From: Escherichia coli
GTDB lineage: Bacteria > Pseudomonadota > Gammaproteobacteria > Enterobacterales > Enterobacteriaceae
Assembly: GCF_022846255.1 (NCBI RefSeq)
Contig: NZ_AP025682.1
DNA: 64,000 nucleotides
Strand: one strand, 5' to 3'
Positions 5,509 through 11,945 of this stretch are shown in pieces (within the stretch, counting starts at the first letter, position 1; each line of letters begins with the position of its first letter). A program made the translations under genes and the position numbers. The notes beneath the pieces are model-generated. The model saw only the letters and a list, made by a program, of their open reading frames with translations. It was not told where the DNA came from and did no database searches.

Positions 5509-5565
5509 GCTCCTGTCTGTTTATTTAATGTTCATAAAAATGATATTCAATGTCCTCTCATGAGT

Positions 5566-5607
5566 ATTACTCAGGAAATAATATCGTCGAATTTTTTTCT
5601 GAGTAAT
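5566..5607. promoter_or_regulatory. inverted repeat ATTACTCAGG-N23-CTGAGTAAT upstream of the yeiI-like fragment
   Basis: 9-10 bp arms seen directly, ~60-100 bp upstream of the HTH-kinase start; candidate operator. Confidence 0.3.
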
Positions 5608-6231
5608 AAGATATAATATATCAGTTTTTCTTAACAAATTGTAGGCTGATTTGAGTTGAATCCAGATGATTGAACTCATTCAGTCAAGCCAAATGATTGA
5701 GAAATTTCGTTTTCCGATATGTGATTGTTGCGTTGTGGTTGGGATAATGTAATCTATTTTCCATGTGGGAGAAAAAACCTTCACTATCGTGTAATCGTGG
5801 ATTCAATCTGGAACGACAACGTCCAACCATTGTTCTGCAACATGATGTGAGTGTCAGTTGGTGGTTCCGGATAAAGGAATAAAAGAAGATAGATTATTAA
5901 TCCCCTGATATATAACGCGATTTGTAATTAAATAGTCTTATTTGATGTTGAACGTTAAATAGCTTCTCTATTGTGATGTAACAATATACAGTGATTAATG
6001 ACAAGCATCTTGCAATGCATCTTACAATGTTATACTTTGATATTTTTGGCTGTGTTGGTCAGAGGCTGACTTCGCGGAATATTTATTTCGTAATTCAAAA
6101 AAATATTGATGTCTTTTTTATAAACCCAAAAATCGAATGAAAGAATCAGATTGTATATCTGATACAGATCATGGAAAAATGAATGTTCACTCGTATAGAC
6201 TCCTGATAAGTCAATAGTGAGTATAGTAAAT

Positions 6232-6444
6232 ATGATCATTTATTGTTTCGTTTTATCAATCTTATTGATTATTCTTCTGTTTTTCTTCTATTCTAAGAGA
6301 TGGGTGTCTGCTTTTTATAGATATCGTCAAAAGCGCTATCATCAGAAAGTCAGGGACAAAGCGTTTAATGCTTATGCAGAGGAAATGAAGAAAAAGAACA
6401 AAGATATAAAAAAATATAAACATTTCTGGCTTCCTCCACTCTGA
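6232..6444 (+). CDS. hypothetical small single-pass membrane protein with basic C-terminal tail
   Basis: ~70-aa ORF (IIYCFVLSILLIILLFFFY then K/R-rich tail); AT-rich codons; weak SD; no recognised homolog. Confidence 0.3.
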   Translation: MIIYCFVLSILLIILLFFFYSKRWVSAFYRYRQKRYHQKVRDKAFNAYAEEMKKKNKDIKKYKHFWLPPL

Positions 6445-6491
6445 TTCATTAGTGTGTGTAGTTCCGATATCTTGTTTTACAGGAGAATATC

Positions 6492-8732: not shown

Positions 8733-9800
8733 TTGCAAAGCATGCAGCTGTTAATTTTACTGATACAGCAAATGAAAGATAAATTACGATTTGAAGTGAA
8801 TGATACTCAGGGCCGTTTCATCTTTCCGGAAACATGGTTCAATACACTTATAGATGAATTTGAGGAACTGGTTGAGGCATATGATGCGGAAAAAATATGT
8901 GGGAAAAACTATATAAGTGAACTCCAGCGTCTTACCGAGCAGGTGCCTGATTTTATCGATGCGTACGCTCATTTGGCATACGTGTTTCTGGAACAGAATG
9001 CGCCATATCAAGCCCTGGATATGGCGCTTAAAGGTTTAGCTGTAGGTAACCGTTTAATAACAGAAGGGTTCAATGGAGAAATTCTCTGGATATATCCAGA
9101 GAATCAACCCTACCTGCGGGCCCTTTATGCTACAATCCTTGCCAATATACATCTTCAACATCATCAGGATGCCGTCATACTTACGGATAAAATATTGACG
9201 TATAACCCAGAAGATAATCAGGCTGCACGATGGTTACTGGGACAAGAACTGTTACGTGCAGGCGAGCGTGATCGGGCGCTGACCCGGTATTCTGATGAAT
9301 TTTCACCTTATTGGTATGAACTTGGATTTCTGCTCTTTCTTAACGGAGAGTTCGTGACGGCAGCAACTGCTTTTCGCCACGGTTTTGCCACTAATATCTA
9401 TATTGCAGATATTTTATGTGGAAATCTACATCCCTTTCCACTTCCTCTGTGGCATAGTTTCTTGGGAGGACCAGACATCGCTGAAGATTATTATGCAACA
9501 TATGGTCTGTTCTGGGGGCAATATCCGGAAGCATTACTTTTCGTAAATTGGCTCTACAATCAGTCATCTGTGTTGAATGAAAGAGCAACAATAATTAAGT
9601 GTGCAGAAGCATTGTTGCGAGAAGATGATTACGAGGCATGCGAGAAGATTCTTAAAGAACAGAAGAGATTACAGGATAATATTGACGACAGGATTTCTGA
9701 GAAAATAGTTAGGAAATACCGAACATTGCAAGGGGATGAGATTTGGCCATGGATGTTACCGTCTTCAATTGATAAGGAGCTGTCCCCTTTTGATGAATAA
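8733..9800 (+). CDS. hypothetical TPR-like helical-repeat protein (orphan)
   Basis: 355-aa ORF (track start is TTG 8733; ATG 8742 or 8772 possible); TPR-like segments (AYAHLAYVFLEQNAPYQALDMALKGL; LRALYATILANIH...AVILTDKILTYNPEDNQAARWLLGQELLRAGERDRAL); no recognised family. Confidence 0.5.
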   Translation: MQSMQLLILLIQQMKDKLRFEVNDTQGRFIFPETWFNTLIDEFEELVEAYDAEKICGKNYISELQRLTEQVPDFIDAYAHLAYVFLEQNAPYQALDMALKGLAVGNRLITEGFNGEILWIYPENQPYLRALYATILANIHLQHHQDAVILTDKILTYNPEDNQAARWLLGQELLRAGERDRALTRYSDEFSPYWYELGFLLFLNGEFVTAATAFRHGFATNIYIADILCGNLHPFPLPLWHSFLGGPDIAEDYYATYGLFWGQYPEALLFVNWLYNQSSVLNERATIIKCAEALLREDDYEACEKILKEQKRLQDNIDDRISEKIVRKYRTLQGDEIWPWMLPSSIDKELSPFDE

Positions 9801-10428
9801 ATATGTGTTGCACGTTTAATATATTAATCATGGCTGGGCGTATAAATCATCATGAAGAGGTATAAATTATAATTATACCATGATTATGAACACGCCCTTC
9901 ATTCTACATCTGTAGGGCGTGATCTTCTACTGAATTTGATTGTAATTATAGCAGTATCTGTATAATGGCTTTATCAGTGAGTTAATATTATGTCGTATGT
10001 AATATAGTAACAGAACAATAATATAAAAATTAAGCTGAGTGTGGATATAAAAGAAAGTTTGTTATAGATTAAATGAAATACCCTCAGAAATATTCTGATG
10101 TAAGGTTATACATAATTGTCGACTATAATCGTATGATATTACATGAGTTTTTAGTGAGTGTGCGATTTCATGTCAGAAATGGATTGTAATGTTTTGTACA
10201 TAAGCATATTTGAGTGCTAAGTGCCTGATGGATATATGTTAAAATATATAACCCTTTGAGTACATTGTCCAAATGGATATAAGAGATAATTTATTATATC
10301 AAAAAATCTGATAACTGAAAACCTCTTGTGTCCCAATAAATAAGCTTAGTTTTAGAAAAATGAGATGAATTTATACAGTGATGCCCTATGAAGCTATTAT
10401 CATGATAGTCATGACACATAATTCTCGT

Positions 10429-11730
10429 TTATTTTAATGGACTAATATCACTATTATTATCGCTATCTGTGATTTTTTCCCCATTCACGGAGATCATTCC
10501 CTGGATATATGAATCCCATAGATGTACGTCACCTTTATGAAAAATAATGCATGACATTGCGATTTTTTGTACTTTATATATCTGTTTATAGTATTCTTCT
10601 GAGTTTAATGGTGTATCTTTCAAGCTTTCATTCCTTGCTGGAAGAATCTTGACGGGACAGATAAAATCTGTATCCCCGAGTGAAAAGACATTAACTCCGG
10701 TTATAAAAAAGATACCCGGAATGTCTTGATGCAATCTCGTATTCCAGACTTGAGGATTAAACAGTTTATATGAATATTTATTTACATCTATATAATATTG
10801 ATGAGGACGCCAATCACTGATACCCGACATACTCATCGTCATATTGATAATTATATCAGGAATAGGTTTGAATAATACACTTAGAATGAACAATATGGCA
10901 GGAGGGAGTATTGCGATAGATAGCAAAGAGTTCAACCCTTCTTCTTGTTTTTCTTCTTGCTCATTTATCACTATCACACCTGGCAACATTCCTAAAAAGA
11001 TAAAAGCTAATGCAATGCAAGAAAATGATAGAAACTGTGATAAGATATCTGCACTCTCTTCAAGTCTGATCTTATTTGTCAAAAATAGCAGGGGGATAAT
11101 CTGAACAAGCCCGGGTAGAATTAAACATAAAGGAAGAGTGTATCTTATCCTGTTCCTGGGACGATATTGTTCGTGATTCTCGTGATTCTCGTGATTCTCG
11201 TGATTCTCGTGATTCTCGTGATTCTCAATGTTCTGTTCCCGAGGGGTATTTTTAGTGAATATTAATTTTTCTGAGAGGAAATATGAGACGAAATAATTAA
11301 ATAATACTATTAGTATTACTTCTGATATGGATGGATATAGAGTATTTTCTTCTGAAAAGGTAGACAGAACTGACTTTAGCACTAATGAAAAATAGAAAAC
11401 AACACTGTTCATATAGCAAATTATAGCAATTCTGTGCGCGATTCCTTTGTGATTTTTATAATAGTCTTTATGCCATGTATATGTATACACCAATACATGA
11501 GAAGATATAAAAATCAGTGAGGTTAGAGCCATTAGAGATAAAAGGATAAATATAAAGATAACACTTAAATAAAACTTTATGTCTATTGAGTCGAAAAACA
11601 AATCAAGTCTACCGAGTCCTTGCAGATAGAACCATATTGCAGATATGGCGCATCCTGTACTAAATACAGAAGACGTTAACATGGCGAGAAAAGCTTTATT
11701 ATTTAAATGTGAAAAGATAGATCTATTCAT
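10429..11730 (-). CDS. hypothetical multi-pass membrane protein with internal (ENH)6 repeat and ~130-aa C-terminal soluble domain
   Basis: ~433-aa ORF (ATG 11730; track start GTG 11739); ~7-8 hydrophobic helices; His-rich loop NIENHENHENHENHENHENHEQ encoded by a 9-bp tandem repeat; AT-rich codon usage. Confidence 0.55.
   Translation of the reverse strand: MNRSIFSHLNNKAFLAMLTSSVFSTGCAISAIWFYLQGLGRLDLFFDSIDIKFYLSVIFIFILLSLMALTSLIFISSHVLVYTYTWHKDYYKNHKGIAHRIAIICYMNSVVFYFSLVLKSVLSTFSEENTLYPSISEVILIVLFNYFVSYFLSEKLIFTKNTPREQNIENHENHENHENHENHENHEQYRPRNRIRYTLPLCLILPGLVQIIPLLFLTNKIRLEESADILSQFLSFSCIALAFIFLGMLPGVIVINEQEEKQEEGLNSLLSIAILPPAILFILSVLFKPIPDIIINMTMSMSGISDWRPHQYYIDVNKYSYKLFNPQVWNTRLHQDIPGIFFITGVNVFSLGDTDFICPVKILPARNESLKDTPLNSEEYYKQIYKVQKIAMSCIIFHKGDVHLWDSYIQGMISVNGEKITDSDNNSDISPLK
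11171..11226. repeat. 9-bp tandem repeat (TCGTGATTC)x6 inside the membrane-protein CDS
   Basis: Six perfect tandem copies seen directly; unit is 3 codons, so copy-number change is frame-preserving. Confidence 0.9.
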
Positions 11731-11945
11731 TATAAGCACATCATATTCTGTTGAGTATATGTCGATTTTATAATGTCATGTTCATGCAGATAATATCATA
11801 AGTAACATTAGTTGAACAAGAACAGAGTTGTAACAGATAAAGATCTCGTTGTTAGTTACATGATCTGATAAATGTTAGCATGAAATAGTAACTATATGAA
11901 GGATATAAGAACCTGTATCATAATGTCATATGCGTTATATCTGAT

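Follow-up and report, generated by a model that had tools for sequence, protein, structure and literature searches.

What does an AT-rich, gene-poor block in an Escherichia coli genomic island hold? The question is raised by positions 5510-11740 (the block) of a 64,000-nucleotide stretch of contig NZ_AP025682.1 (assembly GCF_022846255.1). This whole stretch is referred to as the window. A sequence-only reading had singled out the block as one of the likeliest places in the window for something new. The block is best described, with considerable confidence, as a mosaic of acquired AT-rich DNA in a pheV island, in which two unrelated intact accessory genes lie amid decay and no functional unit is formed. 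One gene encodes a protein of tetratricopeptide repeats (TPR), a putative scaffold. The other encodes a predicted inner-membrane protein with seven transmembrane (TM) helices, here called the 7TM protein. The two would be independently mobile genes kept by selection. Around them would lie a kinase gene cut by an IS3 element, a yaiX'-yaiO-like gene pair, an IS200/IS605 scar, dubious small open reading frames (ORFs) and AT-rich spacers. The gene-poor look of the block would thus be due to gene decay and insertion sequence (IS) activity. What the block does offer that is new is one unnamed protein family, that of the 7TM protein; the hidden system, the double promoter and the orphan translation start that had been suspected did not hold up.

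The window covers a pheV-type island in an E. coli backbone, because its right end is an E. coli flank (speC, yqgA, tRNA-Phe) and the tRNA-Phe gene at 61022-61097 (minus strand) is adjoined by a 420-aa, integrase-sized ORF at 59562-60824. This right end is 99.9% identical to E. coli chromosomes and is present in 5,425 of 5,426 complete genomes. The block itself has a GC content of 0.358 compared with 0.459 in the remainder of the window, and is the lowest-GC 6.2-kb stretch of the window (minimum 0.356 at 5801; median 0.439). A GC content this low is reached by only 0.7% of sliding windows. The profile runs at 0.50-0.56 over the IS3 element at the left, at 0.29-0.44 within the block and at 0.40-0.48 over the right flank, which contains an IclR gene and a metabolic operon. 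The contrast is therefore strong against the left flank and weaker against the right one. The drop in GC that had been noticed from the letters alone was confirmed by this profile.

The foreign origin proposed for the block is likewise supported by its AT-richness, its place in a tRNA-Phe island and its rarity. A megablast search of the same 5,426 complete genomes returned a single, partial match (71.5%), which is confined to the TPR gene; the block as such is absent from them. The block is rare and not unique. Positions 5022-11200 occur at 99.8% identity in one draft contig (L010), and a few dozen draft contigs carry such DNA overall. Four E. coli draft genomes (L003-L006) have 9544-20909 in common with the window at approximately 97% identity. 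The rare DNA really starts at approximately 5056, at the end of the IS3 element, and not at 5510. The IS3 match stops at about 5050-5056, contig L010 begins at 5022, and the YeiI-like kinase gene, cut by the IS3 element on its left, marks the true left edge. Towards the right, the rare DNA runs on past the block into the operon, at 97% identity in L003-L006.

Only two ORFs of the block are convincingly coding, as judged from GC at the three codon positions (GC1, GC2, GC3) and from omega, the ratio of nonsynonymous to synonymous divergence. This agrees with the small number of coding genes perceived at the outset. The TPR gene is intact and under purifying selection. It has GC1 0.55 > GC3 0.36 > GC2 0.34, and its omega is approximately 0.08 against a homologue of 69% identity, a comparison in which synonymous divergence (dS) is saturated. 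The sequence-only reading had started this ORF at 8733 and recognised no family for its product. The correct start is the ATG at 8772 (342 aa), and the remote-homology check identified a TPR protein whose homologues in E. coli, Shigella and plasmids are already so annotated. These homologues form 42 clusters, named 'tetratricopeptide repeat protein', identity being approximately 69% for those of E. coli and Shigella and 50% for those of Morganella. The Pfam matches of the window protein are weak (best 0.02); its homologues carry PF14559, PF12895 and PF13432. In the PDB, the family profile matches the TPR domains of OGT (6e-6) and MamA (2e-3). The protein resembles bacterial TPR scaffold proteins (Pfam TPR clan; WP_000999850.1, WP_244331662.1) in its approximately 69% identity to homologues and its TPR-type profile matches, and differs from them in that this subfamily has no known partner gene or function. 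No signal peptide was seen when the sequence was read for one. A type III secretion chaperone of the SctY type (NF052415) was considered and rejected, the match reaching 23.6 bits over 50 residues against a cut-off of 70 bits.

Elsewhere, one setting of the TPR gene is next to a selC integrase and another is on F plasmids, amid IS elements; these copies have no neighbour in common. The window allele differs from the commoner 345-aa allele (P0077) by an in-frame deletion of three residues, RAFRVLTRY becoming RALTRY. In L003-L006 the TPR gene is cut at the position that corresponds to 9544 of the window, and is followed by an IS110 fragment and a cluster resembling a type I secretion system (T1SS). 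This arrangement occupies approximately 13900-21263 of those contigs: the IS110 fragment comes first, and then a T1SS-like set of OEP, ABC_membrane plus ABC_tran, and HlyD/AprE-like genes. With the set goes a protein longer than 900 aa, without a Pfam match and possibly its substrate.

The 7TM gene is also intact and under purifying selection (omega 0.25 between the window and L003, and 0.10 between the relatives in L009 and L014). Its product has seven hydrophobic segments with a positive-inside pattern, which predicts an N-terminus inside, a cytoplasmic loop between TM4 and TM5 and a periplasmic C-terminal domain. This domain is a predicted alpha/beta fold of approximately residues 288-410. 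A first AlphaFold2 (AF2) model from 16 sequences was poor, with a predicted local distance difference test (pLDDT) score of 62. It was replaced by a model from an alignment of 65 sequences, with a pLDDT of 88 and a predicted template modelling (pTM) score of 0.85. Mean identity in the family is 63% in the C-terminal domain, 44-48% in the TM parts and 23% in the loop. Four residues are invariant family-wide: P250, G303, C358 and C394. Because the two invariant cysteines fall in the predicted periplasmic domain, C358 and C394 probably form a disulfide there. A lipoprotein signal was rejected, as Cys27 is not conserved (absent in P0005 and P0010).

The loop between TM4 and TM5 contains a perfect tandem repeat that encodes (ENH)6. 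It is present in two copies in the closest allele (P0001) and is lacking from more distant homologues; the end of contig L010 falls within it. Copy number varies in-frame, so the repeat alters the length of the loop and is not an on/off switch.

The absence of a recognisable family, claimed for this protein too, withstood the remote-homology check. No Pfam match was found in any of 65 diverse members of the family, and no NCBIfam or PHROG match for the protein itself. PADLOC-DB 2.0 gave no match at E <= 0.1 for any of five proteins of the block. In the PDB there is no relative by sequence or by fold. The model has 95 significant matches in AFDB50, nearly all of them an 'Uncharacterized protein' of Enterobacterales, Pseudomonas or Halomonadaceae. 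The 7TM protein belongs to an unnamed, uncharacterised gammaproteobacterial family.

Table 1. Features of the block and its immediate flanks, in window coordinates (strand "." where none applies).
Position	Strand	Feature	Basis or remark
4963-5508	-	YeiI-like HTH sugar kinase gene, 5' fragment	NCBIfam PRK09954, positions 1-165 of 362, E 3e-93
5510-6216	.	AT-rich non-coding DNA	GC 0.32; without detectable relatives
6217-6444	+	75-aa ORF, one TM helix and basic tail	Unsupported as a gene
6492-6722	+	76-aa hydrophilic ORFan	AGGAG-N6-ATG start; annotated as hypothetical BDH31967.1
6700-7104	+	134-aa ORF	Flat GC1/GC2/GC3 of 0.45/0.43/0.42
7077-7133	+	IS200/IS605-family terminal-sequence scar, 57 bp	86% identity to the element end by tnpA of E. 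coli 042
7207-7243	.	Palindrome TATACTTGACAA-CGACTCTC-TTGTCAAGATAT, TTGACA in both arms, stem 8-13 bp	Promoter/terminator scan
7574-8216	-	YaiO-family outer-membrane beta-barrel pseudogene	tblastn, 38% identity, residues 1-191, E 7e-28
8221-8481	-	yaiX-like acetyltransferase 3' fragment with stops	tblastn, residues 107-193 of 193, E 8e-7
8772-9800	+	Cytoplasmic TPR protein, 342 aa, intact	Start ATG 8772; exact form WP_244331662.1
9801-10428	.	Spacer, 29.5% GC, where the 3' ends of the TPR and 7TM genes face each other	Composition
10429-11730	-	Inner-membrane protein, 433 aa, 7 TM helices, intact	Homologues begin at MNRSIF
11171-11226	-	Perfect 9-bp tandem repeat, 6.2 copies, (ENH)6	Tandem Repeats Finder (TRF); cytoplasmic TM4-TM5 loop
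11946-12707	-	IclR-family regulator	NCBIfam BhcR/KdgR/IclR matches; Pfam HTH_IclR in L003

The ORF-free DNA to the left of the TPR gene had been expected to hide undescribed functions. Much of it proved to be gene debris. A sensitive blastn search of 5510-8740 found that 7710-8472 is approximately 70% identical to the core yaiO/acetyltransferase locus of 4,921 genomes. Across 7574-8481 on the minus strand the gene order is that of the core E. coli yaiX-yaiO locus, with approximately 70% identity in DNA and 38% in protein. The window copy differs from the core locus in being a diverged second copy with stops and frameshifts, and in having the acetyltransferase gene cut to its last approximately 87 codons. 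The yaiO-like part contains several in-frame stops and at least one frameshift, the match going on in a second frame to residue 220, and no ORF of at least 60 aa spans it. Because of these stops and the change of frame, the yaiX'-yaiO-like pair are pseudogenes and not functional paralogues.

The IS200/IS605 scar is a further piece of debris. A tblastn search for a tnpA or tnpB remnant beside it found none. The scar folds into no stable hairpin (z +1.1 and +0.2), the hairpin of the element having decayed. A yfaY remnant at the same positions was rejected, as the match sits in the IS end beside yfaY and the YfaY, TnpA and InsQ proteins have no match there. A joined BLAST match (H23) had hinted at an AraC remnant; tblastn found none, and the join consists of IS3 and TPR pieces. 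Elsewhere in the island, 40421-40651 contains an InsQ/TnpB-like stretch (residues 292-370, 32.5% identity, E 3e-7), which is probably the remnant of a tnpB gene of the IS200/IS605 family.

Three small ORFs precede the debris. The exact sequence of the 75-aa ORF is missing from a collection of 15 billion proteins, and its NCBIfam and PHROGs matches are at chance level only. The 76-aa ORF is preceded by the only strong Shine-Dalgarno (SD) sequence with an ATG in the block. The perfect SD sequence reported earlier is thus real, whereas the start is not an orphan, since it opens an annotated ORF. This ORF is present on 79 contigs and has no homologue besides itself among 5.8e9 proteins. The 134-aa ORF is probably not coding: its GC is flat across codon positions, and Pfam searched on both strands gave no match. 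This stretch is open on both strands and so is possibly former coding DNA. The 207-aa 'long forms' of this ORF proved to be gene-calling artefacts that read TGA as W.

Relatives of the non-coding DNA at 5510-6216 were looked for in E. coli DNA and in Rfam, and none was found. For the spacer between the two intact genes, neither relatives in E. coli nor a known RNA in Rfam were found; in L003-L006 it is approximately 96% conserved, with a 66-bp indel. An Rfam scan by E-value over 5000-12500 gave no match.

The palindromic double promoter-like element of the sequence-only reading exists as a palindrome, and in one scan it is both terminator-like and the best promoter-like site (11 of 12). As RNA it folds at -11.7 and -15.2 kcal/mol on the two strands (z -2.3 and -2.8). 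No second copy was found in the window. Promoter-like sites in the block are at chance level (33 compared with 35 +/- 6 in shuffles). A hairpin or a bidirectional terminator-like element is the better reading, its stem happening to spell TTGACA.

Silencing of the block by H-NS is plausible, AT-richness being its sole support. AT-rich, tRNA-linked island DNA is a class typically bound by H-NS. The block resembles the xenogeneic AT-rich DNA of islands at the tRNA-Phe genes of E. coli (pheV/pheU) in several ways. It lies by a tRNA-Phe gene with an integrase-sized ORF, is strain-specific, has IS elements and pseudogenes mixed in, and is approximately 15 GC points below the E. coli average. It differs in being a sub-segment of an island and not an element of its own, and its H-NS motif density is what composition predicts. 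Sites resembling the high-affinity motif TCGATAAATT number 14, compared with 14.9 +/- 3.6 expected from composition.

Could the small ORFs, the palindromic promoter and the TPR and 7TM proteins nevertheless act together as one new, coherent system under H-NS silencing? The two intact genes are neighbours in the window, and to some extent in L003-L006 as well, the DNA is AT-rich, and a strong SD sequence stands before the 76-aa ORF. However, the TPR and 7TM genes are convergent and lie apart in every other context, each being found without the other elsewhere, so that distribution largely refutes a joint system. In L003-L006 the TPR gene is truncated and the 7TM gene intact, the supposed components are separated by pseudogenes and an IS scar, and neither promoter-like nor H-NS-motif-like sites are enriched. 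A coherent system is consequently highly improbable. Some observations do weigh against reading the block as a mosaic of two genes and decay. All copies of the small ORFs at hand are at least 99% identical, so the ORFs cannot be judged, and the non-coding stretches 5510-6216, 7105-7573 and 9801-10428 are left without explanation. A six-frame NCBIfam scan of 5509-8740 found nothing; it also missed the yaiO remnant and is therefore uninformative, so that further remnants are possible there. The mosaic of acquired DNA is nonetheless the reading that we favour.

The right boundary of the block is the IclR gene, which opens the metabolic operon region and lies outside the orphan block. The operon (11946-20653) comprises IclR, DHDPS-like, UxaA/GD_AH, PdxA-like, GntP, MFS and amidohydrolase genes. 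It is only approximately 87% identical to other E. coli but 97% identical to L003-L006, which makes it a diverged allele of an accessory sugar-acid locus already known.

The 7TM family extends well beyond the window. A full hidden Markov model (HMM) search of 1.8e9 proteins found 160 representatives at 50% clustering, in Gammaproteobacteria, whereas a word-indexed search found 15 clusters only. Close relatives are present in only 5 of 100,044 species genomes. By tblastn, more distant copies were found on 1,230 plasmid records (932 of them conjugative), most from E. coli, and in none of 50,697 phage records. The plasmids are mostly conjugative IncF virulence and resistance plasmids of E. coli, with more than 1,000 IncF records. 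On IncFIB plasmids the gene order is repB, a tyrosine recombinase gene, a small ORF and the 7TM member. The relationship of these IncF copies to the family was established with hhalign (probability 100%, E approximately 1e-52).

Across 12 genomic contexts the 7TM gene has no neighbour in common, and it would appear to travel alone on conjugative plasmids, integrative and conjugative elements (ICEs) and islands. In Enterobacter ICEs with an MPF_G-type gene set (L007, L008, L012, L013) it lies between genes for a type IV coupling protein (T4CP) and DtrJ-like genes on one side and RAQPRD and pilus genes on the other. In L012 and L013 it adjoins a ParE toxin-antitoxin pair. A member of 24% identity lies immediately downstream of a TraG_N gene in L024. 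Other members (L009, L014, L016, L026) are solitary, on Enterobacter or Leclercia chromosomes or among core genes. Between the ICEs L007 and L012, a single pair, the 7TM proteins are 50% identical and the proteins of the type IV secretion system (T4SS) 92-97%. DNA homology between them is lost over the 5' two-thirds of the 7TM gene, and identity sags in the adjacent genes.

A few contexts are worth recording in their own right. The left flank in L020 is as in L009 and L014 and its right flank as in L016. Two neighbourhoods that are otherwise separate thus meet at the Enterobacter gene, which marks a recombination junction or hot spot. In Mixta sp. Marseille-Q2659 (L022, 7001-8241) two ORFs, of 175 and 219 aa, stand in place of the gene, which is probably a pseudogene. 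A 9-kb contig from a metagenome-assembled genome labelled 'Collinsella sp.' (L019, JAIJJM010000061.1) carries a full-length member of 38% identity. This contig is probably mis-binned, because every other close relative comes from Enterobacterales. The PLSDB entry NZ_CP134663.1, a 4.9-Mb E. coli record that is evidently a chromosome filed as a plasmid, contains a TPR homologue and a 7TM homologue of 38% identity approximately 27 kb apart.

What might the 7TM protein do? In the wider family not one polar residue is invariant, which suggests that the protein binds rather than catalyses; most likely it is a non-enzymatic envelope protein whose periplasmic domain would bind a partner. Its likeliest role, although a weak lead, would be one that benefits conjugative elements, for example in mating exclusion or recipient specificity. 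In its most specific form, the 7TM protein would be an entry-exclusion or mating-specificity determinant in the recipient inner membrane, its periplasmic domain recognising a cognate T4SS component and blocking transfer; the window copy would then be a stranded allele. Like TraS of F, Eex of SXT/R391 and EexC of IncC, it is a predicted inner-membrane protein. Some members lie right after traG (L024) or near the coupling protein gene, between it and the pilus genes (the four Enterobacter ICEs), and the family is common on conjugative plasmids and absent from the phage records. Exclusion factors may moreover be unrelated to any described earlier (PMC11493245, which covers the eexC/traG exclusion pair and a previously unknown exclusion factor). 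The sharp drop to 50% identity in the 7TM protein, with the sagging of adjacent genes, makes it more divergent than the transfer genes around it. High divergence amid conserved transfer genes is also known for traS and eex. This comparison, however, is a single pair of ICEs. Variation would be expected in regions that set specificity, yet the periplasmic domain is the most conserved part of the protein. The known entry-exclusion proteins are also far shorter: TraS and Eex have roughly 140-180 aa, whereas the 7TM family has 385-433 aa, two to three times as many, with seven TM helices, a folded periplasmic domain and no sequence relationship found to them. A link to conjugation of any kind is also weakened by the distribution of the family. 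The window copy and its relatives in L009, L014, L016 and L026 are outside conjugative elements, many copies being solitary among chromosomal metabolic or core genes. The IncF copies adjoin RepFIB and lie outside the tra operon, and TraS and TraT are already present on F plasmids. On balance an exclusion or mating-specificity role is unlikely.

The solitary and patchy occurrence of the gene in variable spots would also suit an envelope defence or immunity cargo consisting of one gene, acting in phage superinfection exclusion, in abortive infection or in protection against a membrane-targeting toxin. The company it keeps is in part suggestive, namely the adjoining ParE pair in L012 and L013, genes for HipA, SymE, Mrr-type, HNH and CbtA proteins at 3-8 kb in L009 and L016, and a colicin E1 family immunity gene at 6 kb in L030. 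Its immediate neighbours, however, are mostly metabolic or core genes (abhydrolase, glyoxalase, MFS, valS). The protein has no PADLOC or PHROG match and no effector-like domain, and the phage records hold no copy, all of which makes such a cargo very doubtful. A broader proposal would make the 7TM proteins a structurally unprecedented family with a disulfide-bonded periplasmic domain, carried by conjugative plasmids and ICEs as a hypervariable determinant of exclusion, recipient specificity or an envelope barrier, and so a new class of conjugation control. This we regard as quite unlikely. A putative envelope protein with a partner-binding periplasmic domain is the description that we retain.

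As a whole, the block is unremarkable: it is foreign DNA in decay, as is typical of islands linked to tRNA genes. The 7TM family is its useful by-product. It has no name, Pfam entry or similar structure, yet the sequenced plasmids that carry it number more than 1,200, and members also occur in the transfer clusters of ICEs and on chromosomal islands of Gammaproteobacteria. The family behaves in ICEs like a hypervariable cassette set into a T4SS backbone that is otherwise conserved. If the 7TM protein does control mating or envelope defence, the family would be relevant to plasmid epidemiology.

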